Shown one piece after another: positions 27,117-59,817 of a stretch of 64,000 nucleotides of DNA. Position numbers and translations under genes: made by a program. The stretch is from Thermoanaerobaculia bacterium. GTDB lineage: Bacteria; Acidobacteriota; Thermoanaerobaculia; UBA5066. Numbering within the stretch: the stretch's first letter is position 1; the number at the start of each line of letters is the position of its first letter. The DNA is taken from NCBI GenBank assembly GCA_963719225.1, contig CAVRAY010000001.1:2496001-2560000 (forward strand), written 5' to 3'. A model generated the notes under the pieces. The model was not told the DNA's origin. It searched no databases and saw only the letters and a program-made list of their open reading frames with translations.

Positions 27117-28355
27117 CTAGACGAGGAGCGCGAACACCTCGTTCGAAAGCAGCACGCCCTTGCGCGTGAGGCGGACACAGCCGGGATGTTTTTCGAGTAA
27201 TCCGGCGAAGATCGCGTCCTCCATCCGCTGCGCAGCCGCGTCGGGCAGCGTTCTGCAAATCTCTTCGAAGGTGGAAGAGGGGACGCCACCAGACAGTCGC
27301 AGGCCCAGCATCAAGCCTTCTTTCCTTCTAAGAACATCCCCGTCGTTCTCTTCGGACGTCGCGACGGGCGAGACGCCCGCCCGGGTTCGCTTCAGGTATT
27401 CCGCGAGCATTCCCGTGTTCGCGAACCGAGTAATTCCATCGAAGGAATGGGCACCGACACCGAAGCCCAGGACGGGCACGAGCGTCCAGTACTTCAGGTT
27501 GTGGCGGCTTTCGAAGCCGGGCTTCGCCCAGTTGGAGAGCTCGTAGCGCGGCAGGCCTGCCGCCGTCAGGCGCTCGTCCACGGCTTCCCACCGGTCTGCC
27601 ATCTCGTCGTCACTGGCAAAGAGCTCCGGGTGCTCTTTCTTCAGGGTCACGAGCCTCGGCGCCTTTTCGATCTCGAGGAGATAGACAGAGAGGTGGGTCA
27701 CCTCCGCTTCGATAAGCCCGTCGACGCTCGCGAGAAGCGTCTCCCGCGTCTGTCCCGGAATCCCGATCATCAGGTCCGCCGAGACGTTTCCGAAAATGTG
27801 TGCTGCGTCTGCCACCGCGCGACGCGCGGCCACGGCGTCGTGCCGCCTCTCGAGAGGCAGCAGCTCGGAATCCACGAGCGACTGGACGCCGATGGAAAGG
27901 CGGTTGATGCCCAGAGAGAGAAGATCAGACAGCTTTTCGGAGTCGAGGTCGTCGGGGTTGGCCTCCGCGGTGATTTCGACGTTCGAAGAGAGACCGAAGA
28001 TTTCTTCGAGTGTCCCGAGCAGTCGGCCGAGCTGAGCCGCTTCGACGTACGAAGGAGTGCCCCCTCCGAAGTAGACGGAATCGAACCCGAGGAGCCCGCC
28101 CGAAGCCGCAGGGGTCCTCGAGAGAACCGCCCCCTCCGACCCTTCTAAGAAATCTCTCTCTTCGGGCCTTCCTCCTCTTGTCTCGCCCGCCCTCGAGCGA
28201 ATCTCCCTCTCTACCCCTTCAAAGAAATCTCTCTCTTGTTCTCTTCCCTCGAGCGCCACGAAGGAGCAGTACGTGCAGCGGTGCTCGCAGAAGGGCACGT
28301 GGACGTACGCGCCGGGAGCGGACGTGGCGCCGCGCGGGAGGCCGCCTTCGCTCAC
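27117..28355 (-). CDS. hemW: Radical SAM heme chaperone HemW
   Basis: YVHVPFCEHRCTYC, YFGGGTPS, YELSNW...SRHNLKYW; contains an apparent ~25-aa insertion. Confidence 0.9.
   Translation of the reverse strand: MSEGGLPRGATSAPGAYVHVPFCEHRCTYCSFVALEGREQERDFFEGVEREIRSRAGETRGGRPEERDFLEGSEGAVLSRTPAASGGLLGFDSVYFGGGTPSYVEAAQLGRLLGTLEEIFGLSSNVEITAEANPDDLDSEKLSDLLSLGINRLSIGVQSLVDSELLPLERRHDAVAARRAVADAAHIFGNVSADLMIGIPGQTRETLLASVDGLIEAEVTHLSVYLLEIEKAPRLVTLKKEHPELFASDDEMADRWEAVDERLTAAGLPRYELSNWAKPGFESRHNLKYWTLVPVLGFGVGAHSFDGITRFANTGMLAEYLKRTRAGVSPVATSEENDGDVLRRKEGLMLGLRLSGGVPSSTFEEICRTLPDAAAQRMEDAIFAGLLEKHPGCVRLTRKGVLLSNEVFALLV
27324..28226. repeat. CCTTCTAAGAA motif cluster 1 (in hemW)
   Basis: Exact copies at 27324-27334 and 28141-28151; variant CCTTCAAAGAAATCTC at 28216. 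Confidence 0.7.
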
Positions 28356-29026
28356 GCGCCTTCGGTCAGGAGGCCGCGCAGGCGCTCGTCCCGCGCGCCC
28401 CGAGCTTCGACGGCCTCGCGCGTTTCGCCGAGCCGCGCCGCCAGGAGGCGCTCGACGTACTTTCCGAGGACGTCGACCTCGAGGTTCACGCGGTCGCCGG
28501 GCTTCTTCGTGCCGAGCGTGGTGGCGGAAAAAGTGTGCGGGATGACGGCGATGTCGAAGGAGCTTTCTCCGAGAGCGGCGACGGTGAGCGAGACCCCATC
28601 GACCGCGATCGAGCCCTTCTCGACCGCGTAGCGCGCGAGGGAGGGCGGGAGCGAGAACCGGAAGGTCCATGAGTCTCCCGACCTCTCGATCGCGAGCACG
28701 TCGGCCGTCCCGTCCACGTGCCCGGCGACGATGTGGCCGCCCAGGCGGTCGCCCGCCGCCAGGGCGCGCTCCAGGTTCACGCCCGCGCCCGGGGCCAGAT
28801 CTCCGAGAGCCGAGCGCTGCAGCGTCTCGGGCGAGACGTCGAAGGAGAGAGCCTGGGACCGCGCCGCCGGAGCGACGACCGTCAGGCAGACGCCGGAGAC
28901 CGCGATGCTCTCCCCGACGGCCACGTCGGCGAATGCCGGCGGACGCTCGACCTCGAGCAGACCCCCTGCCGTGCCTGCGCGAAGCGACACGACGCGGGCG
29001 ACGGCGGACACGAGACCGGTGAACAT
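28352..29026 (-). CDS. ribE: Riboflavin synthase (alpha chain)
   Basis: MFTGLV N-terminus, GVCLTV, GGHIVAGHVD. Confidence 0.95.
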   Translation of the reverse strand: MFTGLVSAVARVVSLRAGTAGGLLEVERPPAFADVAVGESIAVSGVCLTVVAPAARSQALSFDVSPETLQRSALGDLAPGAGVNLERALAAGDRLGGHIVAGHVDGTADVLAIERSGDSWTFRFSLPPSLARYAVEKGSIAVDGVSLTVAALGESSFDIAVIPHTFSATTLGTKKPGDRVNLEVDVLGKYVERLLAARLGETREAVEARGARDERLRGLLTEGA

Positions 29027-29035
29027 CCCGCGATC

Positions 29036-30160
29036 CTACCCGACGGCGTAGCCCGGGAGGATTCGCGCCGACAGGCGGACGTCGGCTCCGATTCGCACGG
29101 CGTCGAGATCGGCGAGGCGGCAGGCGTTTCCAAGAGAGCTCGCCCCCTCGCCCTCCAGCGGCGAGCGGGCCCCGGAGCCGCCCACGAGGAGCGGCGCGAC
29201 GTAGGACGTCACGCGGTCGACGAGACCCGCCTTCAGGAACGACGCGGCCGTCACCCCCCCGCCTTCGACGAGCAACGAGCGCACTTCGAGGGCATGGAGC
29301 GCTCCGAGGAGAGCCCGAAGGTCCACGCCGTCTGCCGCAGGCTTCGAGAAGACCTGCACGCCCCGCTCCAGGAACGGCGCGAGGCGCGGATCGCCGGCCG
29401 GCACCGCGGTGACGAGCCAGACTTCGCCCCCCGCCGCGGAGAACACCCGCGCGGTGGCCGGCACGCGGAGCGCTCCGTCGAGCACGAGCCTTCGATGTGG
29501 CGTGATCGCCGAAGACAGAGCGAGCCGGCGGGTCAGGAGAGGATCGTCCGCGAGGATCGTCTGCGCGCCCACGAGAATCGCGTCGCTCTCTTCGCGCAGG
29601 CGCAAGGCGTCCTCGCGGGCAGCCTCGCCGGTAATCCACTTCGAATCGCCGCTCCGCGTCGCGGTCCGTCCGTCCAGAGACGCCGCCCATTTCAGGTGAA
29701 CGAAGGAACGGCGGGCGCGGATGGCCTTGAGGAACGACTCGTTCAGCGTCTCGGCTTCCTCCGCGAACACTCCGACGAGCACGTCCACGCCGCGCTCCTT
29801 GAGACGGCGGATTCCGCGCCCGGCGGTCCGCGGATCGGGGTCCTCGATCGAGCAGACGACGCGCGAGACGCCCGCCGCGAGCAACGCCTCGGTGCAGGGG
29901 GCCGTACGGCCGAAATGAGAGCAGGGCTCGAGGTTCACGAGCAGCGTCGCGCCCTTCGCGCGGGCGCCGGCGGCCGCGAGCGCGATGGCCTCGGCATGCG
30001 GGCCGCCGGCGCGCTCGTGAGCGCCCTCTCCGACCACTCTCCCTTGCGCGTCGACGAGGACGGCTCCGACGCGCGGATTCGGAGACGTCGAAAAGCGCCC
30101 GCGCTCGGCGAGCTCGAAGACGCGCTTCCAGAGGACGTCGAGAGGCGCGGGGTCAACCAT
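29036..30160 (-). CDS. ribD: Riboflavin deaminase/reductase RibD
   Basis: PNPRVG, HAE, LEPCSH..PC, ASLDG, VEGG. Confidence 0.95.
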   Translation of the reverse strand: MVDPAPLDVLWKRVFELAERGRFSTSPNPRVGAVLVDAQGRVVGEGAHERAGGPHAEAIALAAAGARAKGATLLVNLEPCSHFGRTAPCTEALLAAGVSRVVCSIEDPDPRTAGRGIRRLKERGVDVLVGVFAEEAETLNESFLKAIRARRSFVHLKWAASLDGRTATRSGDSKWITGEAAREDALRLREESDAILVGAQTILADDPLLTRRLALSSAITPHRRLVLDGALRVPATARVFSAAGGEVWLVTAVPAGDPRLAPFLERGVQVFSKPAADGVDLRALLGALHALEVRSLLVEGGGVTAASFLKAGLVDRVTSYVAPLLVGGSGARSPLEGEGASSLGNACRLADLDAVRIGADVRLSARILPGYAVG

Positions 30161-31085: not shown

Positions 31086-31132
31086 CGACTTCGAGACTAG
31101 TCAATATGGAACGACCGGTCCAGTTCGCGAAG

Positions 31133-31543: not shown

Positions 31544-31618
31544 CGCGTCGAGTGTCTCTCCGTCCAGACGAAATCCATCGTCCCGGGCCTTGCACGTCTC
31601 GTTCCACCCCTGGAAGAG

Positions 31619-32769: not shown

Positions 32770-34499
32770 GCAGAGGCCTTCAGCGGAACCTCTTCCCCGA
32801 GGAACTCGAAGTCGCCGGAATTCCACGCCTTGTCGAGTGCGGCGATGACCGCCGGGTCGAACGATTTTCCCGCGAAGGAGATGATCTGCGTGATGACGTA
32901 GGTGAGCGGCATGGCTTTCTGGTACGGGCGCGTCGTCGTCATGGCGTCGAAGGTGTCCGCCACGGCCACGACGCGAGCGACGAGCGGAATGCCTTCGCCC
33001 TTCAGACCGTCCGGGTAGCCCCCGCCAGCCCATTTCTCGTGATGGTGCTTGATTCCCGGAATGACGTCCTTGAGCTGAGGAATCTGACCCATGATGAGCG
33101 CGCCCTTGGCCGGGTGCGTCTTCATGATCTCGAATTCCTCGCTCGTGAGGGCGGTCGGCTTCCTCAGGATGCGGTCGTCGATGCCGATCTTGCCGACGTC
33201 GTGGAGCAGCGCCGAGAGCCGCACGACACGCACTTCCTCGGGAGACAGATCCATGTGGCGCGCGAGGACGACCGCATAGCGGGCGACCCGCTCCGAATGA
33301 CCGCGCGTATATGGATCCTTGGCGTCGATCGCGGCCGCGAGCGTGCGCACGGAATTGATGAACAGCTCCTGGTTCTCTTTCGCCGCCCTCTTGAGCCGAT
33401 CCACAGATTTTTCGATCGAGTCGGACATGGAGTTGAATGTCTCGGAGAGCTCCGCGAGCTCGCGCACGCCGCGGACCTCGACGCGCTGCTTGAAGTTCCC
33501 TTCCGCGATCGACCGCACCTTCTCGACCATCTCGACGAGCGGGTGCGCGAGCAGGCGCGCGGCGACGAGAGCGACGAGCCCGGCGAAGAACAGAGAGAAA
33601 ACCGCGAGGAGGGAAGAGGCCTTCTGCATCTGCGCAACCGATGCGTAGGCCGCCGCCTCGTCCTTCTCCACGATGACGCCCCAGTCCGGGGTCGGGATCG
33701 TCGCGAGCGTGCCGAGAACGCGACGCGCGGTCTTGCCCTCGCCCCGCATGTACGACTTCGTGATCCGGACCGGATGCGCGATGAACTCACTGACGAGGTC
33801 GAGGTGGTGCACGTCCCTCGAACGGAAAGCCGAGGCGTCGCTCGACAGGATGAGCGTGCCCGACCGGTCGACGATATAGGCGAGGACGACGCCGCTCTGC
33901 CCCGCGTCGTCGAGCTTCGCCTTGATGAACTTGAGAGACAACAACGCCTCGACCACGCCGATCGGCTGCTGGCCCTCCGCCGGCCGGACGGGCACGGCGA
34001 GAACGAGCGCGCCATCCGGAAGCGACTTGGGAAAGATCGGGTCGGCCACGTACGAATCGCCGCGCATCGCGGCGTTGTAGGCCTGGCTGAGCGGGCGCTC
34101 CACGTCCGGGTCGAGAGTCGCGGTATCGGCCGCGGAGGCGACGCCGTCGCGGTCGAGGGCGCGCAGCACGGGGAAGCTGGACTCGGCATCGGCGTACTCG
34201 CGCAGGAGCTGCTTTTTCGAGAGATAGAAGAACGGGTCGGTGGACATCGAGCTCGCGAGCCGGATGCCGTCCGCGATCTTCTTGAGCTGCGATTGGGCGT
34301 TCGTGATGTACGTGTCGAAGCTGTCGGCGAGGGTCACCGAGCTGTTCTTCAGGTATTTTTTCTCGGCCGTTTCGAGAGCGTCCCGGTTGATGCGGATGAG
34401 GTTGAAATGCAGGAGGGCGAGGGGGACGATCGAGACGAGGACCAGCGCGACGAGCAGAGCCGTCACGATCCTCAGGCGGGGAAGCCGGGCAACACCCAT
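32766..34499 (-). CDS. Cache-HAMP-HD-GYP cyclic-dinucleotide phosphodiesterase
   Basis: Two TMs, HAMP, KDPYTRGHSERV, LHDVGKI, HHEKWAGGGYPDGL. Confidence 0.9.
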   Translation of the reverse strand: MGVARLPRLRIVTALLVALVLVSIVPLALLHFNLIRINRDALETAEKKYLKNSSVTLADSFDTYITNAQSQLKKIADGIRLASSMSTDPFFYLSKKQLLREYADAESSFPVLRALDRDGVASAADTATLDPDVERPLSQAYNAAMRGDSYVADPIFPKSLPDGALVLAVPVRPAEGQQPIGVVEALLSLKFIKAKLDDAGQSGVVLAYIVDRSGTLILSSDASAFRSRDVHHLDLVSEFIAHPVRITKSYMRGEGKTARRVLGTLATIPTPDWGVIVEKDEAAAYASVAQMQKASSLLAVFSLFFAGLVALVAARLLAHPLVEMVEKVRSIAEGNFKQRVEVRGVRELAELSETFNSMSDSIEKSVDRLKRAAKENQELFINSVRTLAAAIDAKDPYTRGHSERVARYAVVLARHMDLSPEEVRVVRLSALLHDVGKIGIDDRILRKPTALTSEEFEIMKTHPAKGALIMGQIPQLKDVIPGIKHHHEKWAGGGYPDGLKGEGIPLVARVVAVADTFDAMTTTRPYQKAMPLTYVITQIISFAGKSFDPAVIAALDKAWNSGDFEFLGEEVPLKASA

Positions 34500-35614
34500 C
34501 CGACCCTATTGTACCCCGCAAGAACGCTCTCGAAGGCCTCCACGAGCTCCGCCGCCTCGACGCGCACGAGCGCGGTTTCGCCGGGGCGGGCGAGGACCAC
34601 GGCCTTGTGGCCGCGGCGGTCGGATTTCTTGTCGGCCCGAAGGAGCGCGCCGACTCCGCGCACCGCGGAAGTGGAAGGGCACGGCGGCTGGACGAGCCGG
34701 ACGACGCGGCCAGCGAGCGCCTCGGCCGTGCCCCGGGGAAGCCGCGCTCTCTTCACCGATACGTGAAGCGCCGCGAGCAGCCCCCAGGCGACGGCTTCCC
34801 CGTGCTCGAGGCGGTGTCCCGAGGCCGTTTCGAGAGCGTGGCCCACCGTGTGTCCGAGGTTCAGGGCGGCCCTCTCCCCCGTTCTCTCGAAGGGATCGCG
34901 TGACACGGCGCGCGCCTTCACGCGCAGGGACCGGAGCACGGCCTCGGTGACGGCCGCCGGCTCTCGGGCGGAAAGGGGGACCTCGAGGCGCGCCATCGCC
35001 CGATGGAAATCCGCGTCGAGCATCGACGTCTTGACGGCCTCCGCCAGACCGGACCGATACGCGCGGAGCGGCAGCGTCTCGAGCGTGGACGTATCGACGA
35101 CGACGAGACGAGCCGGATGGAACGCGCCCGCGAGATTCTTTCCCGAGGGAAGGTCCACGGCGGTCTTGCCGCCGAGGGCGCTGTCGGAGGCCGCGAGAAG
35201 AGTCGTCGGCGCCTGGACGACAGGCACGCCGCGCAGCGCGAGAGCGGCCGCGAAGCCCGCCACGTCACCCACGGTTCCACCTCCCAACGCGACGACGCCC
35301 CCGTCCCGCCGAAGGCCGCGCCGGACGAGCTGCTCGAGGAGCCGGCCGAGGACGGACCAGGTCTTGGCGGCTTCGCCGTCCGGGACGAAGAGGGGTTTCG
35401 GATCGAGGACCCCCTCAATGCCTCCAGCTGACAGCTTCGGGCCATGGAGATTGAAGATCTTCTTAGAAGTAATGAGGAACCAGCGGCCCGGCGCAATACG
35501 GCGGAGGCGCGCGCCGAGCGAAGCCAGCGCGCCGGACCCGACGACGACGTCGGTCCGGACGCCGGCCGCAACAAACGAAAACGAGGAGAGATGACGGCCC
35601 TTCCCCAACCACAC
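34472..35614 (-). CDS. aroB: 3-dehydroquinate synthase
   Basis: GEAAK, GGGTVGD, PTTLLA, GGKT, LNLGHTVGHALE, HGEAV; start uncertain. Confidence 0.93.
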   Translation of the reverse strand: MWLGKGRHLSSFSFVAAGVRTDVVVGSGALASLGARLRRIAPGRWFLITSKKIFNLHGPKLSAGGIEGVLDPKPLFVPDGEAAKTWSVLGRLLEQLVRRGLRRDGGVVALGGGTVGDVAGFAAALALRGVPVVQAPTTLLAASDSALGGKTAVDLPSGKNLAGAFHPARLVVVDTSTLETLPLRAYRSGLAEAVKTSMLDADFHRAMARLEVPLSAREPAAVTEAVLRSLRVKARAVSRDPFERTGERAALNLGHTVGHALETASGHRLEHGEAVAWGLLAALHVSVKRARLPRGTAEALAGRVVRLVQPPCPSTSAVRGVGALLRADKKSDRRGHKAVVLARPGETALVRVEAAELVEAFESVLAGYNRVGWVLPGFPA

Positions 35615-35648
35615 GCCCTTCCCCTCTCCCCCTTCTAAGAAAATCTTC
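35459..35648. repeat. CCTTCTAAGAA motif cluster 2 (aroB 5' region and aroB-aspS gap)
   Basis: CTTCTTAGAAG at 35459-35469; CCTTCTAAGAAAATCTTC at 35631-35648 in a polypyrimidine tract. Confidence 0.7.
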
Positions 35649-35685
35649 TCTTCTCTTTTCTTTTCCTAGACAAGAAATATTCTCT

Positions 35686-37449
35686 TCAGCCCTCGGCCTT
35701 CGGCGGTTTCGCGAGCGCGATGTGGAGCTCGGCGAGCTGCTCGGACGACACGGGATTCGGGCACTGGGTCATGAGATCCGTCCCCGAAGCGGTCTTCGGG
35801 AAGGCGATCACGTCGCGAATCGAGGACGAGCCCGTCAGGATCATGAGCATGCGATCGAGCCCGAGCGCGATCCCGCCATGGGGCGGTGCGCCGAAACGGA
35901 AGGCGTCGAGGAGGAATCCGAACTTGGAGCGTGCCTCCTCCGGGCTAATTCCGAGCGCGGTGAAAACGCGCGACTGCACGTCGGGCCGGTGGATCCGGAT
36001 GGACCCGCCGCCCAGCTCCATGCCGTTCAGAACGACGTCGTACGCGCGCGCCTTCACGCGGCCGGGCTCGCTCTCGAGATACGGCAGGTCCTCCTCGCGC
36101 GGCGACGTGAACGGGTGATGCATCGCGTACCAGCGGGCGTCTTCCTCGTGCCATTCCAGAAGCGGGAAGCCGGTCACCCAGAGGAACTCGTAGCGTCCTT
36201 CGGGGACGAGCTTCTCCTCGCGCGCGATCTGGACGCGGAGCGCGCCGAGGAAGTCATTGACGGACTTCTTCGTACCGGCGGCAATGAGGAGGAGGTCGCC
36301 GGAACGCCCGCCCAGCGCGGCACCGATCTTCTCGACCGCTCCGTCGCTGAAGATTTTCTTGGAATTGGAATTCCAGGCCTCCTCTTCCGCGAGCTTGACC
36401 CAGATGAACCACTCGGCGCCGCTCGCCCGCGCGGCCTTTTCGAGGTCATCCAGCCGCTTGCGGGAAAAAGACGCGCCGCCGGGCACGCACAGTCCTTTGG
36501 CCGTATCCATTTTCGAAGGAAAAACAAGCAAACCCTCGCCGAGGCTTTTCAATTCGAGATCGAAGCGGGTGTCCGGCCGGTCGATGCCGTAGCGCTCCAT
36601 CGCCTCGTCGTACGTCATTCTCTTGAACGGGGCCTCGCACGGGATCCCCCACGCCGGGAATACCTTCGCGAAGAGCTTCTCGACGAGCGCGAAGACGGCC
36701 TCCTCGCTCGGGAACGACATCTCGATGTCCACCTGAGTGAACTCGGGCTGGCGGTCGGCCCTCAGGTCCTCGTCGCGGAAGCAGCGTGCGATCTGGTAGT
36801 AGCGCTCCATCCCCGAGACCATCAGGAGCTGCTTGAAGAGCTGCGGCGACTGCGGGAGAGCGTAGAACTCGCCCTCGTGGACGCGCGACGGGACGAGGAA
36901 GTCGCGCGCGCCCTCGGGGGTCGACTTCGTGAGGATGGGCGTCTCCACGTCGAGGAACCCCTCGGCGTGCATCACTTCCCGGATCGCCATCGTCACCGCG
37001 CTGCGCGTCATGAACTTCTTCGTCATTTCGGGGCGCCTGAGGTCGAGATAGCGGTGCGTGAGGCGCAGATCCTCCGACGCCTTGATGCCGTCCTCGATCG
37101 GAAATGGCGGGGTGTCGGCCCGATTCAGGATGGAAAGCGCCGTCGCGCGGAGCTCGATCTCGCCGGTCGGAAGGTCGCGATTGACGCTCGGCCCCTCCCT
37201 CTCGACGACCGCGCCGGTCACGTCGAGGACGAACTCGTTGCGAAGCTCCTTGGCCTTCTCGAGGAGATCGGCTTGAGGCACGAACCGCGCGTCGAACACG
37301 ACCTGGGCGATGCCGGAGCGGTCGCGCAGGTCGATGAACACGAGCTCGCCGTGGTCGCGTCGCCGGTTCACCCAGCCCTGCAGGCGAACCGTCCGCCCGA
37401 CGTCGTTCTTGCGGAGAGTTCCGGCGGGGGTGCGTTCCGGAGAGGACAT
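35686..37449 (-). CDS. aspS: Aspartate-tRNA ligase
   Basis: RRDHG..FIDLRD, TPEGARDF, LPQSPQLFKQ, FRDEDLRADRQPEF, PPHGGIALGLDR. Confidence 0.97.
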   Translation of the reverse strand: MSSPERTPAGTLRKNDVGRTVRLQGWVNRRRDHGELVFIDLRDRSGIAQVVFDARFVPQADLLEKAKELRNEFVLDVTGAVVEREGPSVNRDLPTGEIELRATALSILNRADTPPFPIEDGIKASEDLRLTHRYLDLRRPEMTKKFMTRSAVTMAIREVMHAEGFLDVETPILTKSTPEGARDFLVPSRVHEGEFYALPQSPQLFKQLLMVSGMERYYQIARCFRDEDLRADRQPEFTQVDIEMSFPSEEAVFALVEKLFAKVFPAWGIPCEAPFKRMTYDEAMERYGIDRPDTRFDLELKSLGEGLLVFPSKMDTAKGLCVPGGASFSRKRLDDLEKAARASGAEWFIWVKLAEEEAWNSNSKKIFSDGAVEKIGAALGGRSGDLLLIAAGTKKSVNDFLGALRVQIAREEKLVPEGRYEFLWVTGFPLLEWHEEDARWYAMHHPFTSPREEDLPYLESEPGRVKARAYDVVLNGMELGGGSIRIHRPDVQSRVFTALGISPEEARSKFGFLLDAFRFGAPPHGGIALGLDRMLMILTGSSSIRDVIAFPKTASGTDLMTQCPNPVSSEQLAELHIALAKPPKAEG

Positions 37450-37460
37450 CGTGGCGGATC

Positions 37461-38723
37461 TTACAGACGCGCGCGGAGGACGGCCGCGAGGCCGAGCCGC
37501 GGCAGCGACTCCTGCGTGCGCCGCGCGAGATCCTTGACGTTCACGACTTCCGCCTCGCGCTCCTTCTGCCCGACGAGAACCGCGAGAGTGGCCCCGATCT
37601 TCTCCGCCACCCTGAGGCCGTGACCGGGCCCCTTCGCGGCCGTGACGAGATCGACGGGAATTCCCTCCTGGCGGAGCGCGCGGGCGAGCGCCATGGATTC
37701 CTCGACGTCGGCGCGCTCGAGAGGAATCACCGCGAGGCGCCTCGTCCCCTCGATCGCCTCCTTGCGGAATTCCGCAGGAAGGACGTCGACCAGACGGTCC
37801 TCGCCGATGGCGAACCCGATTCCTGCGGTCTTCGGTCCCCCGAGATCGGAAACGAGCCTGTCGTAGCGCCCGCCGCCGAGGATCGCATCCTGCGCTCCGA
37901 GGCCGGCGGCCGTCACCTCGAAGACCGTGCGGGTGTAGTAGTCCAGGCCGCGGACCAGAAGAGGATCGATTCGATACGGGATCTTCGCCGCGTCGAGAAA
38001 GCCGAGAAGCATCGTGTGGTGTTCGGAGGATTCCTTCGAAAGGTAATCGACCATGCGCGGCAGCGAGGGGTCGGCGAGCCATTCCGCGAGGCGCGGGTTC
38101 TTCGAATCGAGGATCCGGAGCGGGTTTTCCGCGAGGCGCCGCCTGTCGTCGTCATCCAGCGATTTCTCCTTCGAAGAAAACCAGGCGCGCAGCGCCTGGA
38201 TGAATTCCGGTCTCTCGGCGTCAGTCCCCACGGAATTGAGCGAAACGGAAAGTCCCGTGAACCCGAGCCGCCCGAGGAAGTCGAAGAGCATGACGAGCAG
38301 CTCGGCGTCCGTCGCGGCGTCCGCGGGGCCGAGCACCTCCGCGCCGATCTGCCGGAACTCGCGGTAGCGGCCCTTCTGCGGGCGCTCGTAGCGGAACTGC
38401 GGCCCGACGTAGTAGAGCTTCCAGGGCCTCCCGGCCTGGGCGAGCGCGTGCTCGACGTAGGCCCGCGCGACCCCGGCCGTGTTCTCGGGACGCATCGTCA
38501 CGGAGCGCCCGCCGCGGTCGGTGAACGTGTACATCTCCTTGTGGACGATGTCGGTCGCCTCGCCGACGCTCCTGACGAAGAGCTCGGTGGACTCAAGCGT
38601 CGGCGTCCGGATCTCGTCGAACCCGTAGAGCGCGAAAACCGCGTGCGCGGCGGCTTCGACGCGGTTCCAGACACGCGTCTCGGGCGGGAGGAGGTCCCGC
38701 GTCCCCTTGACGCTCGCGATCAT
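37461..38723 (-). CDS. hisS: Histidine-tRNA ligase
   Basis: KGTRD, RPENTA, FRYERPQKGRYREF, RGLDYY, GGGRYD. Confidence 0.97.
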   Translation of the reverse strand: MIASVKGTRDLLPPETRVWNRVEAAAHAVFALYGFDEIRTPTLESTELFVRSVGEATDIVHKEMYTFTDRGGRSVTMRPENTAGVARAYVEHALAQAGRPWKLYYVGPQFRYERPQKGRYREFRQIGAEVLGPADAATDAELLVMLFDFLGRLGFTGLSVSLNSVGTDAERPEFIQALRAWFSSKEKSLDDDDRRRLAENPLRILDSKNPRLAEWLADPSLPRMVDYLSKESSEHHTMLLGFLDAAKIPYRIDPLLVRGLDYYTRTVFEVTAAGLGAQDAILGGGRYDRLVSDLGGPKTAGIGFAIGEDRLVDVLPAEFRKEAIEGTRRLAVIPLERADVEESMALARALRQEGIPVDLVTAAKGPGHGLRVAEKIGATLAVLVGQKEREAEVVNVKDLARRTQESLPRLGLAAVLRARL

Positions 38724-38748
38724 CGTGGGCCCTCGCGGGCCGCCGGCG

Positions 38749-39546: not shown

Positions 39547-41340
39547 TCAGGCGGATCGACCGGAGGGCCGCGCCCTCGAGCTGCTTTTCCCGAAAGCCGA
39601 GAGCAGCTGGCGCGCCTGGGCGCGTGCCGGCTCCCCCACGGACGCGCCCGCGAGGAGCGCCGCGACGGCCTCCATCCGGCCGGTCCCGTCGAGGGCCTCC
39701 ACGCGCGTCCGCGTCCGGCCTTTCGAAGCCTCCTTCGAGACCGAGAAATGCCACTCGCCGGCTGCGGCGACCTGCGCGAGATGCGTGACGACGAGGACCT
39801 GCTCTTTCGCCGCCAGACCCCGCAGCTTCCGCCCGACGGCCTCTGCCGTCGCGCCCGACACGCCCGCGTCCACCTCGTCGAAGACGAAGGTCCGAACCGG
39901 ACTGCCGCGCCGCCGGGCCGCCGGCTCGTCCTCCCGGAGCAGCTCCTCGGCGCCCAGCGCCGCGGCGAGTGCGAGCTGGACGCGAGAGAGCTCTCCGCCC
40001 GACGCGATCTTCTGGAGCGGACGCGCCGGCTCCCCCGGGTTCGGCGCGAAGGCGAAGCCCACCACGTCGATGCCATGCGCCCCGAAGGAGACGCGGCTGC
40101 CGCCGGCCGCGAAGCGGCTCGATTCCTCTTCCCGGCGCGCGACGGAGACCGAAAACGACGACTTCAGGAACGCGAGGTCGCGCAGGTGCGCCTCCACGGC
40201 CCGGCCGAGGCGCGGCGCGGCCGCCTCGCGCGCGGCGGAGAGCTCGAGCGCGGCGCGGCGAAAGGCGGAAAAGGCCTTTTCCGACGTCCCCTCCGCCTTC
40301 TTGACGGCGCCCTCGAGATCGCGAAGCTCGTCGCGCTCGTTGGCGAGGGACGCGCGCTTCTCGAGCACGTCGGAGAGCGTCGCGCCGTACTTCCGCTTCA
40401 GCTTCGCGAGAGCGTCGAGCCGCTCGGCCACGAACGCGGCCCGGGCGGGATCGGCCTCGAGGCTCCCGAGGTCGCGGGACGTCTCGAAGGCGACCTCCTT
40501 GAGTCGTTCGATCGCCTCGGCGAGGGTTGCGCTTCGGGTGGCGTAGGAAGAAGAGAATTCTTCGAGTGAATGAAGAGCGGAACGCGCCGCGGCGGCGGCC
40601 CTCAAGGCGCCCCGCTCGTCGTCCTCCAGAGCCGCGGACGCTTCCGCGAGAAGCTTTCCGATCCGCTCGACGCTCGCCAGTCTCTTCCTTTCAGAAGAAA
40701 TCTCCTCGTCTTCCCCCTCTTTCGGTCCGACCCCGTCGATCTCGCCGATCTGGAAATCGAGCAGCTCGAGCCTTTGAACGCGGTCCCTGGCCGCCTCGTG
40801 AAGGCGGGCGAGGTCGCGCTCGGCGCCGACGAACTCGCGGAAGAGCGCCGCCGTCGCCGCCGCCTTCTCCCCGAGACCCGCGAAGCGGTCGAGGAGCTCG
40901 CGAGGCGCATCGGGATCGAGGAGGTCGCGCGCCTCCGCCTGTCCGTAGAGGACGAGGAGATGCGGCGCGATCTCCTGCAGGGTCTTCAGGGCCGTGGGAG
41001 AGCCGTTCACGAGGAGCCGGCTCTTGCCGCCCGCGGCGACTTCTCGGCGCACGACGACTTCGAACGGGCCCGAGCCGCCTTCCTCGAGGAGGCCCGCGTC
41101 GGCGAGCGTACGCCTCGCCTCGGCGTCGTCGCAGTCGAACGCGCCCTCGACGACGAGCCGCTCGGCCCCCGCGCGGACGAGAGCGGGGTCCGCCCGTCCT
41201 CCCGCGAGGAGCATCACGGCGTCGACGACGAGGGACTTGCCGGCGCCCGTCTCTCCCGTCAGGACGGTGAGGCCTTCACCGAACGCCACCTCGACGTCCT
41301 CGAGGACGGCGAGGTCGCGGACACGGAGAGACGTCAACAT
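39547..41340 (-). CDS. recN: DNA repair protein RecN
   Basis: TGETGAGKS, SGGELSR, FDEVDAG, VTHLAQVAA. Confidence 0.95.
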   Translation of the reverse strand: MLTSLRVRDLAVLEDVEVAFGEGLTVLTGETGAGKSLVVDAVMLLAGGRADPALVRAGAERLVVEGAFDCDDAEARRTLADAGLLEEGGSGPFEVVVRREVAAGGKSRLLVNGSPTALKTLQEIAPHLLVLYGQAEARDLLDPDAPRELLDRFAGLGEKAAATAALFREFVGAERDLARLHEAARDRVQRLELLDFQIGEIDGVGPKEGEDEEISSERKRLASVERIGKLLAEASAALEDDERGALRAAAAARSALHSLEEFSSSYATRSATLAEAIERLKEVAFETSRDLGSLEADPARAAFVAERLDALAKLKRKYGATLSDVLEKRASLANERDELRDLEGAVKKAEGTSEKAFSAFRRAALELSAAREAAAPRLGRAVEAHLRDLAFLKSSFSVSVARREEESSRFAAGGSRVSFGAHGIDVVGFAFAPNPGEPARPLQKIASGGELSRVQLALAAALGAEELLREDEPAARRRGSPVRTFVFDEVDAGVSGATAEAVGRKLRGLAAKEQVLVVTHLAQVAAAGEWHFSVSKEASKGRTRTRVEALDGTGRMEAVAALLAGASVGEPARAQARQLLSAFGKSSSRARPSGRSA

Positions 41341-48139: not shown

Positions 48140-48149
48140 GGCGCGCCCA

Positions 48150-48977: not shown

Positions 48978-49744
48978 AACAGCACCTTCGTCAGGAAGAA
49001 GTCGGCGATGAGAATCGAAAGGGAGCCCATGACGACGGCGGTCGTCGTGGACCGGCCCACGCCTTCCGCGCCGCCCTTCGTGTCGAAGCCGCACTGGCAG
49101 CCCACGAGCGCCAGGAGGAGCCCGAAGACCGCCGACTTGATGAGGCCCGACGTCAGGTCGTCCATGTCGAGGAACTGAAACGTGTTGTTGATGTAGATCA
49201 CCGGGTTCGCACCGAGGTACGTCACGGCCACGAGGTAGCCGCCCATGATGCCGATCGCATCCCCGAGGACGACGAGCATCGGCAGCACGATGATCGCCGC
49301 GAGGACCCGCGGGACGAACAGGTAATGCACCGGATCGGTGGCGAGCGCGACGAGCGCGTCGATCTGCTCGGTCACGCGCATCGAGCCGAGCTCGGCGGCC
49401 ATCGCGCTGCCCGCGCGCCCCGTCACCATGAGGCCTGTCAGCACGGGGCCGAGCTCGCGCAGCATCGAAAGCGCGACGACCGACCCGATGTAGCCCTCGG
49501 CATGGAAGCGCTGGAACCCCTTGAACGTCTGGAGCGCCAGGACGCCGCCCGTGAAGAACGCGGTCAGGAGCACGACGGGTACGGAGTCGACGCCCACGCG
49601 CACGACCTGCTTGGCCGTCGCGGAGGGCGTCCACGGGGGCGTCACGAGGCCGCGCAGGGTCATTCCGAGCAGCTCGAAGAAGCGCCCGACTCCCTGCAGG
49701 ACGCTCAGGACTCCGCGCCCGAGGAACTCGAGCACAGAGTTCAC
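48974..49744 (-). CDS. mlaE: MlaE ABC permease
   Basis: RELGPVLTGL..GRAGSAMAAELGSMRVTEQIDAL. Confidence 0.93.
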   Translation of the reverse strand: MNSVLEFLGRGVLSVLQGVGRFFELLGMTLRGLVTPPWTPSATAKQVVRVGVDSVPVVLLTAFFTGGVLALQTFKGFQRFHAEGYIGSVVALSMLRELGPVLTGLMVTGRAGSAMAAELGSMRVTEQIDALVALATDPVHYLFVPRVLAAIIVLPMLVVLGDAIGIMGGYLVAVTYLGANPVIYINNTFQFLDMDDLTSGLIKSAVFGLLLALVGCQCGFDTKGGAEGVGRSTTTAVVMGSLSILIADFFLTKVLF

Positions 49745-50958
49745 AGGAACTTCGTCTCCCGTGCCACGATCCGGCCTCCGGACCGGATGATACGTGGCAC
49801 GCGCGGCCCGACGCCGCAGAGGATCTCCCAGGAAACGGTTCCCGCCGTCGCCGCGACCTCGTCGACGCCGAGCCGCACGTCTCCCTGACGGCCGAAGAAG
49901 ACGACCTCGGCTCCCCTCGTGGGACGGGCATCGAGGTCCGTGGCGTCCACGGCCGTGAGGTCCATCGAGACGCGCCCGGCGATCGGGCAGCGCCGGCCCC
50001 CGATCAGGACGTGCCCGCGCCCGGAGAGGTGGCGCGGCACGCCGTCCGCGAAGCCGGCCGGCACGATCGCGAGCGTCGTCGTCCGCCCCGCGACGAACGT
50101 CCCGCCGTAGCCCACGCGCGTCCCGGGCGGGACGGTCTTCACCTGGTCGACGACGGAGACGAAGGACATCACGTCGGAAAGAGAATCATTTGCTTCGGAG
50201 GGGAGACCGGGGATACCAGGGACATGAGCGTAGAGAGCAAGGCCAGGGCGGACGTGGGTAGGTTCGAAGAGGACCTGCTTAGAAGGTGAATTGACCAGAC
50301 GCGAGAACGTCGCCGCGCTGTTGTCCACGTGGATCATGGACGGCCGGTGACTCGCCGCGCGAATTGCCTTCAGACCTTCTAAGAAAACCCCGGTCTGCGC
50401 CTCGGTTTGTGCGCCGCCGGGATCGTCCGCCGAAGCGAAGTTCTGAAATACACCTTCTAAGAGAAGGCGCCCTTTCATCGAGTCGAGAAGGTCGAGGACC
50501 CGCGGCAGGTCCGCCGGAAGCACTCCCAGCCGCGTCATCCCCGTGTCGAGCTTCAGATGTACCGGCAACGGCGAGGGGGATTGCCCCCTCCCCTTTTCCC
50601 CTTCTAAGAAAATCTTCATCTCTTCCGCTTGCTCGACCGAATGAACGTTGGCCGTGAGGCCACCCGAGACGAGGGCGCCGAGCTGATCTCTTCCGATCCA
50701 GCCCATGACGAGGATGGGCTGCGCCACGCCCGCCCGGCGCAGCTCGAGGCCTTCCTCGACGACCGCGACCGCGAAGATCGGCGCGCCTTCCTCGGCGAGG
50801 CGGCGCGCAACGTGCCCGGCGCCGTGGCCGTATGCGTCCGCCTTGACGACCGGCATCAGGGCACAGCTTTTCGGCAGCGCGCGCGCGAGGACCCGGTAGT
50901 TCGACGCCAGCGCGTCGAGATCGATGACGGCGTGCGTGGGGCGGAGGGAAGAGATCAG
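49741..50958 (-). CDS. alr: Alanine racemase
   Basis: PVVKADAYGHG, HLKLDTGMTRLG, VRPG, GRVSMD; probable CTG start overlapping the dnaB stop. Confidence 0.93.
   Translation of the reverse strand: MISSLRPTHAVIDLDALASNYRVLARALPKSCALMPVVKADAYGHGAGHVARRLAEEGAPIFAVAVVEEGLELRRAGVAQPILVMGWIGRDQLGALVSGGLTANVHSVEQAEEMKIFLEGEKGRGQSPSPLPVHLKLDTGMTRLGVLPADLPRVLDLLDSMKGRLLLEGVFQNFASADDPGGAQTEAQTGVFLEGLKAIRAASHRPSMIHVDNSAATFSRLVNSPSKQVLFEPTHVRPGLALYAHVPGIPGLPSEANDSLSDVMSFVSVVDQVKTVPPGTRVGYGGTFVAGRTTTLAIVPAGFADGVPRHLSGRGHVLIGGRRCPIAGRVSMDLTAVDATDLDARPTRGAEVVFFGRQGDVRLGVDEVAATAGTVSWEILCGVGPRVPRIIRSGGRIVARETKFL
50277..50617. repeat. CCTTCTAAG motif cluster 3 (four copies in alr)
   Basis: 50277-50286 (reverse), 50375-50385, 50453-50462, 50600-50617. 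Confidence 0.75.
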
Positions 50959-52310
50959 AGCCCGGGGCCTTCGCTGATCATCGCGAGGTCCGAGAAGCGC
51001 GTGTACTCGCCCGACCAGCCGAGCGTGAAACGGTCGGTCGGGCCGTTGCGCTGCTTGGCGATGATCACGTCGCAGATGTTCTTTTTCTCCGTGTCCGGGT
51101 CGTAATACTCGGGCCGCGACAGGAAGAGGACGACGTCGGCATCCTGCTCGATGGCGCCCGACTCGCGGAGGTCCGAGAGGACAGGCTCCTTTTCGGAGCC
51201 GCGCTGTTCGGTGCGCCGCGAAAGCTGCGAGAGCGCGATGACGGGGACATCGAGCTCCTTGGCGAGAGCCTTGAGGCCTCGCGAGAAGGCGCTGACCTCC
51301 TGCGTGCGGTTCTCCACCTTGCCGCGGGAGCCCATGATCTGGAGGTAATCCACGAAAAGCGCGTCGAGGCCGTGCCTCTGCTTGAGCTGGAGCGCCCGCG
51401 CCCGCATCTCGAGAAGCGTCGCGGCCGGAGAGTCGTCCACGAAGAGCTGCGCTTCGCGCATCTGCTGCGTCGAGAAGAAGAGCGCTTTCTTCTCCTCCTT
51501 CGAGAGACGGCCCTCGCGCAGGCGCTGCAGGTTCACCCGCGACTCGGCACACTGAATGCGGAAGCCGAGCTGCTGCGCGGACATCTCGAGCGAGAAGAAA
51601 CCGACGACGAACTTCTGGTGGATCGTCAGGTAGGACGCGATGTTCAGGGCGAACGCCGTCTTCCCCATGCCCGGCCGGGCCGCGACGACGATCAGGTCGG
51701 TCTTCTGGAAGCCCTGTGTCAGGGCGTTCAGCCGCGTGAAGCCCGTGGGCAGCCCCGTCAGCATCGTGCCGCGCCCGTGGATCTTCTGGATCTCCTCCTC
51801 GTTCCTCTCCGCGATGCGCGAGAGCTTCACGAAGCCGCCCTTGATGGAGCCCTTCGCGATCTCGACGAGGTCGCGCTGCGCGTTCTCGAGGACGGTCTCG
51901 GCATCGGGGGCCGTCACGGCGTCGCGGATCGCGCGGCGGGACTGGAAGATGACGAGCCGCCGGAGGGAAGACTCGCGCACGAGGCGCGCGTAGCTCTCGA
52001 CGTTCTCGACGTCCGGCACGCGGTCCACGAGCGACGAGAGGACCGCCGCGCCGCCCGCCCGCTCGAGCCGCCCGGTCTTCTCGAGCTCGCTCTGCACCGT
52101 GACGAGGTCCACGCCCTCGCGCCGGTCCGCGAGCGCGAGGCACGACTCGTAGACGAGCCGGTGCGCCTCGCTCGCGAAGTCCTCCGGCACCAGGAATTCC
52201 ATGACGCGCGACAGCAGGGAGCCGTCGATCAGGATCGCCCCCAGAAGGCTGCGCTCGGCGTCGGGCCGCGCGGGAAGAACCTCGGAATCGACGGGGGCGA
52301 GGGTGGACAT
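50955..52310 (-). CDS. dnaB: Replicative DNA helicase
   Basis: AARPGMGKT, FSLEM, VDYLQ, SQLSR, DLRESGAIEQDAD, KQRNGP. Confidence 0.97.
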   Translation of the reverse strand: MSTLAPVDSEVLPARPDAERSLLGAILIDGSLLSRVMEFLVPEDFASEAHRLVYESCLALADRREGVDLVTVQSELEKTGRLERAGGAAVLSSLVDRVPDVENVESYARLVRESSLRRLVIFQSRRAIRDAVTAPDAETVLENAQRDLVEIAKGSIKGGFVKLSRIAERNEEEIQKIHGRGTMLTGLPTGFTRLNALTQGFQKTDLIVVAARPGMGKTAFALNIASYLTIHQKFVVGFFSLEMSAQQLGFRIQCAESRVNLQRLREGRLSKEEKKALFFSTQQMREAQLFVDDSPAATLLEMRARALQLKQRHGLDALFVDYLQIMGSRGKVENRTQEVSAFSRGLKALAKELDVPVIALSQLSRRTEQRGSEKEPVLSDLRESGAIEQDADVVLFLSRPEYYDPDTEKKNICDVIIAKQRNGPTDRFTLGWSGEYTRFSDLAMISEGPGL

Positions 52311-52394
52311 CGGGGGCGCCTGTTTTATCTCAGTTCAGGTCCCTCGCGCGAGAGGGTTGGTGCTACGTCGGCGGATCCTGGCGCCACATCCAGG

Positions 52395-53270: not shown

Positions 53271-53310
53271 CCGAGGATGGTAGCAGCGGGGCTCCTGTAA
53301 CCTCGCCGCC

Positions 53311-55017: not shown

Positions 55018-55022
55018 TGCCT

Positions 55023-55958: not shown

Positions 55959-56024
55959 ACGAGCCTCCCCCGCGATCCCGCGTATTTTGCGCCTCGAGGG
56001 TGCTGTGTTTGTTGCTGCACGCGG

Positions 56025-57479: not shown

Positions 57480-57510
57480 CCGCACCCGCCTTCCCCCGTA
57501 TGATGCCCGC

Positions 57511-58137
57511 ATGAGCGATTTCCCCTCCCCGTCTTCCCATGCCGCCATCCTCGAAAACGGCGATCTTCCCGACCCCCGCGTCGACCAGATCGCCGGCCAC
57601 GTGAAGGAGATCATCCGCATCCTCGGGCTCTGCCCCGACCGGGATGCGAACCTCATCAATACCGACCGGCGTGTCGCCCGGATGTATCTCGACATCTTCT
57701 CCGGGCTCGACGAGGGCACCCGGCCGAAGCTCACGACCTTCCCGAACGAAGAGCACTACACGTCGATGGTCATGGAGAAGCAGATCCCCTTCTATTCCAT
57801 GTGCGCCCACCACTTCGTGCCGTTCTACGGGCACGGCCACATCGCCTACATCCCGAACGACACGATCGTCGGCCTGTCGAAGCTGCCGCGGCTCCTGGAG
57901 TTCTACGCGCGGCGTCCGCAGGTCCAGGAGCGGCTCACCGAGCAGGTCGCGGCCGTCCTCGAGGAGGAGCTGAGGCCTCAGGGGGTCATGGTGGTCATCG
58001 AGGCCCGGCATCTCTGCGTCGAGATGCGCGGTGTCAAGAAGCCCGGCGCCGTGACCGTCACGTCGGCGATCCGGGGGATCTTCCTGCAGAAGGCGGTCCG
58101 CGAAGAGTTTCTGGACCTCCTCAGACGTCCGGCCTGA
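57511..58137 (+). CDS. folE: GTP cyclohydrolase I
   Basis: SMCAHHFVPF, GLSKL, QVQERLT, HLCVEMRG. Confidence 0.95.
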   Translation: MSDFPSPSSHAAILENGDLPDPRVDQIAGHVKEIIRILGLCPDRDANLINTDRRVARMYLDIFSGLDEGTRPKLTTFPNEEHYTSMVMEKQIPFYSMCAHHFVPFYGHGHIAYIPNDTIVGLSKLPRLLEFYARRPQVQERLTEQVAAVLEEELRPQGVMVVIEARHLCVEMRGVKKPGAVTVTSAIRGIFLQKAVREEFLDLLRRPA

Positions 58138-58184
58138 AGAACCTTCCTCTCGCTCGGGCGTCTCACGTTCCGAGGAGGACCTCC

Positions 58185-59075
58185 ATGAGCCGTGCCGCCG
58201 CCGTTCCCGCGCTTCTCGCCGCCCTCGTTCTGTCCCTCCCCGCTGCCGCCGAGCGCACCGTCACGATCGAAGGGAACGACGGGTCGGGCTGTTCGGGCGT
58301 CCACATGCACTTCGGCGACCGGACCACGGCCCGGGGCGAGGAGACGATCACGCTCTCGCGCCGGGACGCGAAGGGGCTCGTTCTCGAGGGCTCGCGGAAC
58401 GGGGGTATCACCGTCCGCGGCGCCGACGTGGGCGAGTTCAAGGTCACGGCATGCACCGCCGCGGCGGGCGACGACGACGCTTCCGCCCGCGCCGTCCTCT
58501 CGAAGGTCGTCCTCCGCTCGTCGGGCGGCCGCGTCACGATCGATGGCCCCGCCGGCGAACACTGGACGGGATTCCTGATCGTGACGGCCCCGAAAGACGC
58601 AGACTTCTCGGTCGATGCCTCGAACGGCCCCGTCTCGTTGACCGGACTCTCGGGCACTCTCACCGTGAGCACGGAGAATGGGCCGGTTTCGCTTTCGAAC
58701 CTGACGGGCTCTGCCGACGTCGAAGCCGCGAACGGCCCCGTCTCGTTGAAAGGCTCCTCTGGTGACGTGAAGATCCACGCCGTGAACGGCCCCCTCACGA
58801 TCGCCCTCACGGGGACGCGGTGGGAAGGCAAGGGACTCGACGCCACCGCGAAGAACGGCCCGCTCACCCTGAAAGTGCCGGACGGATTCGCTTCGGGCGT
58901 GAGGGTCGAGACCTCCTCGCACTCCCCCTTTACCTGCCGGGGTGCTGCCTGCGAAAGCGCGCGGCGCCAGGACGGAAACCGCACGCGGCTCTTCGAGATC
59001 GGGAACGAGAACGCGACCGTGAGGATCTCGACGGCGAACGGCCCCGTCTCGATCGTCAGCGCGAACCGCTCCTGA
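58185..59075 (+). CDS. DUF4097-like beta-strand-repeat secreted protein
   Basis: Signal peptide; repeated xxNGPV/L units. Confidence 0.8.
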   Translation: MSRAAAVPALLAALVLSLPAAAERTVTIEGNDGSGCSGVHMHFGDRTTARGEETITLSRRDAKGLVLEGSRNGGITVRGADVGEFKVTACTAAAGDDDASARAVLSKVVLRSSGGRVTIDGPAGEHWTGFLIVTAPKDADFSVDASNGPVSLTGLSGTLTVSTENGPVSLSNLTGSADVEAANGPVSLKGSSGDVKIHAVNGPLTIALTGTRWEGKGLDATAKNGPLTLKVPDGFASGVRVETSSHSPFTCRGAACESARRQDGNRTRLFEIGNENATVRISTANGPVSIVSANRS

Positions 59076-59817
59076 GCCTGACGGCCGCCTCGAGGCCTCG
59101 GAGGGTCCGCACCCCGTGCCAGCAGAAGTCGTCGCCCGACACGAGGACGACGCGCGCCGTGGCGGGCAGCCGCTCGCGCCAGAACGCGGCGTCGCGCTCG
59201 CGGAAGCGGTAGGGCTCGTCGGGGAGGATCAGGACGTCCGGACGCGCAGCCACGATCGCATCCACGTCCGTCACCGGATAGTCAGACCCTTCGCCGTTTA
59301 TTTCTTCGAATGAGGAAGAGCCGCCGACTCGGCGAAGCAAATCCGCGATGTACGTGCGGGGGCCGACGGTCATCCAGGGGTCCTTCCAGATCAGATAGAC
59401 GTACCGAAAGCGCGGCGCCGACGCACCGCGCAGGCCCGCCTCGACGCGCTCCAGAGCCGCCTCCACCTTCGTAGAAATCTCTTCCGATTCTTCTCTCTTA
59501 CCCGTCAGCGCACCGAAGTGCCGCAGGAGGCTCGGGACCTCCGCGACGGTCCTCGGGTGCGAGACGTCCACCCGGATCTCTCTTTTGAGCTGATCGATGT
59601 CTTCAGCCCTGTTTTCCTCCCCATTACAGAAGACGAGATCGGGCCTGGCCGCACGGATCGCCGCGAGGTCGGGGTTCTTCGTGCCTCCGACCCGCGGGAG
59701 GCCTTTGAGCGCCTCGCGCGGGTGGATGCAGTAGCGCGTGACGCCGGCGAGGCTCTCGGCGAGGCCCATCGCGACGAGGCTCTCCGTGATCGACGGGCAG
59801 AGCGAGACGATGCGCAC
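59056..59817 (-). CDS. Helical-backbone metal receptor (BtuF-like), no signal peptide
   Basis: RIVSLCPSITE, GVTRYCIHP, VGGTKNP, EEN. Confidence 0.85.
   Translation of the reverse strand: MRIVSLCPSITESLVAMGLAESLAGVTRYCIHPREALKGLPRVGGTKNPDLAAIRAARPDLVFCNGEENRAEDIDQLKREIRVDVSHPRTVAEVPSLLRHFGALTGKREESEEISTKVEAALERVEAGLRGASAPRFRYVYLIWKDPWMTVGPRTYIADLLRRVGGSSSFEEINGEGSDYPVTDVDAIVAARPDVLILPDEPYRFRERDAAFWRERLPATARVVLVSGDDFCWHGVRTLRGLEAAVRLRSGSR

Follow-up and report, generated by a model that had tools for sequence, protein, structure and literature searches.

Paired arms in core genes of the window

The DNA analysed here (the window, 64,000 bp; positions 2496001–2560000 of contig C1) belongs to the source genome G000, an assembly with contigs C1 and C2 and a completeness of 97%, and the nearest named relatives of its Alr protein are Thermoanaerobaculia/Acidobacteriota records. 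The window carries an asymmetric motif, hereafter the arm, whose divergent pairs, judging from alignments with related genomes, very probably mark hot spots of exchange between species. A first-pass annotation had listed eight copies of CTTCTAAG; their positions and strands are all confirmed, against an expectation of 0.37 copies and with eight reached in none of 100 shuffles, and the 18-nt identity between the copies at 35631 and 50600 is present as described. The clusters are divergent pairs, not loose groupings, and in each pair a minus-strand arm is followed by a plus-strand arm.

The host genes all lie on the minus strand. In hemW (27117..28355), a divergent pair occupies the 3' part (27250..27350), with arms centred 63 bp apart at 27266 (−) and 27329 (+), and the same 63-bp pair is found in nine relatives. 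Two tandem plus-strand arms, 28146 and 28221, lie in the 5' part (28130..28245); the former sits within an in-frame insertion that is absent from 14 aligned orthologues, and G006 has a separate tandem insertion. The next pair (35445..35665; 35465 (−) and 35636 (+), 171 bp apart) spans the 5' end of aroB (34472..35614) and the aspS–aroB gap. In aspS (35686..37449), a minus-strand arm (36361) adjoins an 86-bp foreign-looking block (36256–36341; together 36256..36375), and its partner, visible in relatives, falls short of the cut-off in the window. The arms 38037 (−) and 38173 (+) flank a mosaic patch of ~270 bp (37955..38225) in hisS (37461..38723), which has two alleles across species clades. 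In recN (39547..41340), the pair 40563 (−) and 40694 (+) (40545..40715, 131 bp apart) lies in a patch whose tree rejects the species clades. The alr gene (49741..51000, start codon not fixed) holds a cluster (50262..50625) of one minus-strand arm (50281) and three plus-strand arms (50380, 50458 and 50605); its outer arms fall in loops that are longer in this genus only, and the orientation of the middle arm flips between species. The last pair, 59307 (−) and 59471 (+) (59290..59490, 164 bp apart), lies in a gene for a TroA/BtuF-like periplasmic binding protein (59056..59817).

The gene names of the first-pass annotation hold for hemW, aspS, hisS, recN and alr, which pass the NCBIfam cut-offs, whereas aroB has its best match, and BtuF a best or near-best match, below the cut-off. 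Its degenerate copies score as arms at 27266, 28221, 36361, 38173, 40694 and 59471, but the one at 27996 falls below the cut-off. Overlooked were the partner arms at 38037, 40563 and 59307, together with a weak solo arm at 8746 (−; 8732..8765), whose score of 20 may reflect chance.

A polar motif constrained at the DNA level

The arm is asymmetric, ~30 bp long, with the core CYTTCNAAGAAA and pyrimidine tails: a pyrimidine run and C(A/C)C precede the core YTTCNAAGAAA, which is followed by a same-strand pyrimidine tail of 20–35 bases. A palindromic core, CTTCT-W-AGAAG, had been proposed; this fits only one of the eight window copies (35459) and 24 places genome-wide, and the arm is polar. There are 230 exact copies in G000, and the motif accounts for nearly all of the top over-represented 12-mers, homopolymers aside. 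A weight matrix combined with a core filter finds 622 sites, compared with 35 in the reversed genome as a control; with a looser filter the numbers are 840 and 183.

Sites within genes (439 of 622, by our own, unvalidated caller with 3974 genes) occupy all six frames, 221 in sense and 218 in antisense orientation, and the remaining 183 lie outside called genes or at gene edges. When synonymous codons are shuffled within genes, 6.25 copies remain on average (maximum 14 in 20 shuffles), compared with 135 observed. This excess and the spread over six frames and both strands bear out the earlier suggestion that the constraint acts on DNA, independently of frame and strand. An association with essential genes, by contrast, does not hold, as 309 called genes of many kinds carry sites. 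The imprint on coding sequence is plain: the codon TTA accounts for 267 of 151,677 leucine codons, but is used in ~50 of 145 FLE[G/R] tripeptides; the peptides FLEG, PSKK and FEEI are over-represented; and GC content at four-fold sites drops from 0.90 to ~0.80 within ~100 bp of sites. We note that the 3' end of the 16S rRNA and the start of the adjoining spacer (G000:C1:905528) resemble a variant of the motif over ~10 bases, probably by coincidence, because sites ignore gene direction.

Divergent geometry of the pairs

Within 300 bp of each other, 181 pairs are minus-then-plus (divergent), nine are plus-then-minus (convergent) and 46 are direct. Expressed per neighbouring pair, 269 of 304 −/+ pairs are less than 350 bp apart, compared with 14 of 304 +/− pairs, and clusters of arms read −+, −−+ or −++. 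With paralogues removed, the spacing sets in at ~60 bp, has its mode at 70–79 bp (3.6 pairs per bp, 44% of them intergenic) and a minor bump at 128–141 bp, and is down to 0.17 per bp at distances over 200 bp, so that most pairs are 60–250 bp apart. Pairs lie within a single gene in 101 of 159 cases, and strong solo arms are also present.

The spacers themselves carry little signal. Spacing shows no 10.5-bp helical phasing (p 0.56–0.75), spacers are unstructured in a folding test (z −0.02), a search for a central motif returns GC-rich words only, and no spacer repeat family was found beyond orthologues and kinase paralogues. An array of Ser/Thr kinase paralogues lies at G000:C1:2293000–2320000, and many of these have a 91-bp pair and a serine run encoded by the arm tail. 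Pairing between arms, or template switching, is not indicated, core identity being 0.834 within pairs and 0.836 after permutation. On C1 the sites have no bias with respect to replication direction (292 leading, 284 lagging).

Probable exchange of short patches between species

We aligned 28 window genes from up to 16 genomes of the genus and compared local with leave-one-gene-out distances, sites being defined independently. Windows within 60 columns of a site have a mean rho of 0.25, with 13 of 16 below 0.35, compared with 0.70 in site-free genes, where three of 185 are below 0.35; neighbouring windows are not independent in this comparison. The species signal returns over 200–300 columns from the sites, and the gap persists in divergence-matched classes. 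In hisS, a 9-bp indel and several dozen diagnostic changes separate two alleles of ~270 bp. One is carried by G000, G017, G008, G013, G021 and the outgroup, the other by 11 genomes of all three clades, and the alleles split the sister species G001 and G013. With the arms masked by ±22 columns, a species clade is rejected at p<0.005 by five of eight patches and by none of 12 same-gene flanks; these patches were picked by site position after an earlier round of analysis, and the alr flanks overlap. Discordance here stands at 0.54 in the spacers and as far as 100 columns beyond them, compared with 0.38–0.39 far off.

Over 253 kb aligned among G000, G003 and G013, the ratio of concordant to discordant columns is 0.81 in spacers and 1.35 far away. 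A set of 329 genes contains 73 internal divergent blocks, of which 30 are ≤40 bp from an arm (null mean 3.5, maximum 10 of 1000); of the 83 site clusters, 31 overlap a divergent block. The tracts end at variable points, as far as ~100 bp beyond the arms. A public contig from one study, 97–98% identical on both sides, differs across 36256–36341, the block beside the aspS arm. Contigs from sequencing runs, which are mixtures of relatives, showed no strand-switch joint among those listed. In a gene named alaS from its sequence (G000:C1:2438000–2440200), five arms and three divergent blocks occur together.

One whole cassette has also moved. This 144-column cassette at the 3' end of nth (C1:947482, also in G001) has an ~80% identical copy 1 Mb away at C1:1963214, between unrelated genes; the copy is absent from G003, and the 250 pairs yielded no other clear case. 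At the level of spacers, ectopic matches do not exceed the control, in which 31 of 250 segments have them. Where other intergenic pairs differ between genomes, they do so as entire units.

Distribution and evolution of the sites

The pair pattern is found in all 28 other genomes of the genus (15–113 matches) and in seven of eight genomes of a sister genus (0–18), and in none of 26 other members of the family. Class-wide, 14 of 201 genomes and two of the 80 genera searched have it, kin among these not being independent, and it is also present in 42 metagenome stretches. The single match among viral contigs, in a phage tail gene, is judged to be chance. The genomes with zero counts include the outgroups G025 and G030, both unpublished, and the set of Alr proteins from other families includes one from G025; no conclusion hangs on these alone.

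The pairs of the window are orthologous across 18 sampled relatives in the genus, and of the 87 G000 sites that could be tested, 51 persist in both G003 and G013. One Alr arm points either way between species and still has a divergent partner. Within genes, arms arise in situ from host DNA. In Alr, the ancestral peptides LLLEG and TFEE were converted to arms through few changes, and two loops, each of one fixed length within each motif-less group (five and seven orthologues), span 21–32 and 16–32 residues in 18 members of the genus. Tandem duplication of arms is recurrent. Relative to G003, indels reach 0.11–0.14 per base in spacers and tails, ~20 times the background of 0.006, and divergence at first and second codon positions is 2–3 times background. 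Discordance, indels and reduced synonymous GC extend ~100–200 bp in all. Gaps are absent from the same positions in the motif-less genomes G075 and G076.

Comparison with known systems

The motif shares many features with the uptake signal sequences (USS) of Pasteurellaceae and the DNA uptake sequences (DUS) of Neisseriaceae, namely a short motif restricted to a clade, in hundreds of copies on both strands and in all frames, with a core and less conserved flanks, an excess of the peptides that the motif encodes, placement where the protein tolerates change, and a link to recombination. Comparable distortion of the proteome, and a link to or origin in recombination, are described for USS and DUS (PMC2817400, PMC2397512). 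As in those systems, over-representation here goes beyond codon use; the motif is restricted to a clade with competence genes, but ComEC and ComEA-type genes also occur in motif-less genera; and the association with recombined segments weakens under wider masking. Neither action as a single copy nor the use of close inverted copies as terminators at gene ends, a role that PMC7811141 and PMC2397512 describe for USS/DUS pairs ≤21 bp apart, is found for the arms, which form mostly intragenic divergent pairs with unstructured spacers. The motif further differs in sequence, in the 60–250-bp distance between divergent arms, in patches of ~0.1–0.4 kb compared with 1–7 kb, and in a density that is lower and uneven along the chromosome.

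Chi sites, which RecBCD/AddAB recognises, are polar, intragenic, clade-specific, recombination-associated and replication-skewed. The arms have the first four of these properties, but are longer, paired and without skew in replication direction. With repetitive extragenic palindromic (REP) and REPIN–RAYT elements, Rickettsia palindromic elements and the Neisseria NTS/dRS3–Ssn system, in which NTS/Ssn modulates transformation (PMC11893778), they share inverted arms, dispersed copies and some in-frame insertions. Unlike REP/REPIN–RAYT elements and miniature inverted-repeat transposable elements (MITEs), they have no conserved spacer or hairpin and G000 has no Y1 transposase; unlike NTS/SRM–Ssn, they have no hairpin motif and no genus-wide small GIY-YIG Ssn. 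The sites parS, Noc boxes, matS, FtsK-orienting polar sequences (KOPS) and architecture-imparting sequences (AIMS) are frame-independent and unevenly distributed from ori to ter. The arms likewise ignore frame, have TTC...GAA half-sites and are uneven from ori to ter, the last without independent replication, but they are neither self-contained palindromes nor replichore-polarised, form hundreds of pairs, and no matching protein was found. The motif is set apart from DUS/USS by their single-site action, and from Chi, REPIN, Ssn and parS-type sites by the traits that define them; it appears to work most like an uptake sequence. We found no description of it in the literature searched, which did not extend to supplements.

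A proposed two-armed signal for DNA uptake

We tentatively favour, at a little less than even confidence, the reading that each copy of the motif makes up half of a two-armed DNA signal, used in the uptake or processing of DNA during natural transformation and spreading by molecular drive. A DNA receptor would bind both arms, which would lie parallel once the spacer bends into a U-turn; this arrangement would explain both the orientation rule and the minimum of ~60 bp. Uptake in Haemophilus is thought to begin at a kink (PMC7811141). Short environmental fragments carrying a pair would enter and recombine more often, and stronger arms would spread and be tolerated despite their cost in rare codons, amino-acid changes and loop insertions. 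Errors of end processing would generate indels, tandem arms and the rare ectopic cassette. Since the motif is costly in codons and protein changes, and yet stands in hundreds of copies on exchanged patches, we infer that it most simply promotes the transmission of its own DNA. Drive by transmission is the model put forward for DUS and USS (PMC2817400, PMC2397512).

Of the candidate readers tried, only a ComEA-type protein with two helix-hairpin-helix domains roughly tracks the motif. Its gene (G000 C1:1007226–1007921) encodes an N-terminus that by eye resembles a signal peptide and a variable linker of ~60 residues, with one arm within the linker itself and another just upstream. The protein is found in 23 of 28 genomes of the genus and five of eight of the sister genus (28 of 36 jointly), and in two of 26 others; the form in the motif-less G065 has a very short linker, and public protein sets hold many relatives. 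A single-domain comEA (C2:230425–230838) adjoins a pilin-like gene, with a pair just upstream. That the two-domain ComEA is the receptor reading the arms is speculative; as five motif-bearing genomes do not have it, it is no more than a lead.

The other candidates were rejected on distribution. Reverse transcriptase (PF00078) occurs in two of 24 genus genomes, counted over relatives plus G000, and, not being clade-wide, is not supported as a reader or as the source of templated writing of the retron or diversity-generating type. ComEC and tyrosine recombinases do not discriminate, HU/IHF is everywhere, there is a single FtsK for FtsK/TraB, and no histone fold or RecT was found. MCM gave weak AAA+ matches only. 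The second ParB is present in all ten genera of the family, motif-less ones included. Y1 transposase has no match in G000 and matches in four of five genomes searched, one of them motif-less. Nearly all matches to the GIY-YIG nuclease profile are UvrC-sized frames, the exceptions being an 83-aa match in the probably chimeric part of C2 and a 79-aa frame in G057. For USS and DUS, uptake is raised through a specific receptor (ComP or the PilQ complex); the PF16732 (ComP_DUS) profile gave no match anywhere, the controls included, and therefore does not speak for or against such a receptor here.

Several observations weigh against the uptake reading. ComEC, which is present along with ComEA-type genes, also occurs in a motif-less genus; ComEA is generally not known to be sequence-specific; and the two-domain form was not found in five of the 28 genus genomes, two of them 99% complete, while two motif-less genomes have it. 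At 12 of the 87 sites, the allele of G003 has no motif although both G000 and G013 possess the arm, which drive does not obviously predict, and the higher density of sites in the terminus half is not accounted for by uptake. Sites are also found preferentially at protein positions that vary intrinsically: between the motif-less G075 and G076, amino-acid difference is 0.19 at these and 0.13 elsewhere (142 columns), so that part of the excess variability at sites is intrinsic permissiveness of the positions. As for exchange, only aspS remains at p<0.05 with masking of ±36 columns and longer windows, the btuF patch and both hemW patches never rejected a species clade, only three of 15 pair-centred windows are strongly discordant in the three-genome test, and in nine patches no polarity of import (raised or lowered arm strength) could be read. 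Finally, USS pairs give no gain in uptake and transformation tracts extend over several kilobases (PMC7811141); the motif is therefore not of the USS family.

If an uptake signal it is, a wider pattern would follow. Uptake signals in the cited literature come from two families of host-associated Proteobacteria, and a third such signal, with two arms and in Acidobacteriota of soil and sediment, would mean that motif-driven gene flow evolved again, with another geometry. The rule of spacing and orientation, together with a named candidate protein, makes the question of drive versus selection testable. Whatever the reader, pairs predict mosaic core genes (tRNA synthetases, recN and alr) across species, a point of consequence for species boundaries and for trees built from marker genes. 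Targeting of short patches, if real, could serve DNA delivery.

Alternative readings

It is possible, though we think it on the unlikely side, that the pairs belong to an undescribed exchange system, in which outward-facing arms delimit several hundred small cassettes in core genes and a two-headed receptor or cassette-processing enzyme moves these between species, occasionally to new loci. Self-propagating, built-in recombination hot spots would then reshape housekeeping proteins loop by loop.

A role in chromosome organisation, as the first-pass annotation suggested, is a less probable rival of the uptake reading: a cytoplasmic protein would bridge the two arms of small DNA loops and thereby organise or segregate the terminus half, with sites kept by natural selection and mosaic patches arising from selected imports with better sites, or from fragile bound sites. 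Mapping relative to ori and ter makes this possible. The gene dnaA is on C2, and a site resembling the dif consensus lies at C1:2,037,584, near the skew maximum at 2.095 Mb. Up to 1.25 Mb from dif, each 100 kb holds about 15–27 sites, and farther away 6–13, a difference of about 2–3 times. The excess holds within each codon-score class (2–4 times), and two pairs flank dif in G000. The retention of sites in G003 and G013 fits such a function, as does a second parA–parB operon directly upstream of dif (G000:C1:2037560–2039524), found family-wide in 55 of 62 relatives, and parS and Noc boxes have TTTC/GAAA halves similar to the half-sites of the arms. However, G000 has a canonical parS-type site at parA, the dif-side ParB has the same reach into motif-less genera as noted above, none of the histone-fold, FtsK or HU/IHF searches yielded a suitable protein, helical phasing is lacking, and pair counts vary from 15 to 113 within the genus. 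Neither the loss of phylogenetic signal, patch exchange nor the ectopic cassette is directly predicted. The gradient is also without an independent replicate, since density in G019 follows orthologous segments and that genome is rearranged or misassembled; a synteny break at G019:C2:~700000, which places dnaA ~0.75 Mb from terminus-region genes, would be a large inversion or a misassembly.

We regard as doubtful a third possibility, that the pair is a cassette handled by a nuclease, a Chi-like helicase-nuclease or a recombinase that cuts or stops outside each arm, giving a selfish exchange that carries host DNA and copies arm–spacer–arm units to homologous and, rarely, unrelated loci. The ectopic nth cassette, the coming and going of intergenic pairs as wholes, the ~20-fold indel excess and the recurrent tandem arms suit this well, and a divergent orientation might, by the geometry of Chi, shield a linear fragment from both ends. 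It is weakened by the single clear ectopic cassette in 250 pairs, spacer matches at control level, the lack of a spacer family, tract ends that vary outside the arms and the lack of replichore skew; of the expected enzymes, G000 has no Y1 transposase, reverse transcriptase is confined to two of 24 genus genomes, and no Ssn-sized GIY-YIG nuclease or RecT was found.

A decayed element of the MITE, REPIN or Rickettsia palindromic type, inserted into genes, is improbable and largely refuted. Inverted arms, in-frame insertions near arms and one ectopic copy recall such elements, and the suggestion of a tiny repeat inserting in frame survives in the tandem duplication of arms and the one moved cassette. 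It is otherwise mostly wrong: spacers of 63–250 bp consist of coding DNA of the host, alignable with orthologues that have no motif and with ancestral coding sequence, there is no common spacer, hairpin or covariation of arms, and arms are reached from ancestral peptides by point changes and flip in place. Peptide preference, chance or assembly artefact has next to no probability, for although part of C2 is probably chimeric and FLEG-like peptides are tolerated in helices, the codon-shuffle null is exceeded ~20-fold, many sites lie outside called genes, and the motif recurs in every other genus assembly and in metagenomes.

Additional observations

The part of C2 from ~620000 to 871796 is a 75–85% identical inverted duplicate of C2:1–200 kb with second copies of housekeeping genes, and is probably a chimeric join with a relative or another organism. 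In the window itself, a gene at 1200–3800 has ~126-bp internal repeats in three near-identical blocks of ~870 bp, which may represent a beta-propeller repeat or an assembly duplication. Elsewhere on C1 (2197000–2211000 and ~1103000–1113000), repeats of ~60–70 bp may be integron attC sites, and four to five copies occur of an element that we take to be IS110/IS1111-like, each with a single unpaired arm that lies ~68 bp in from the downstream end.

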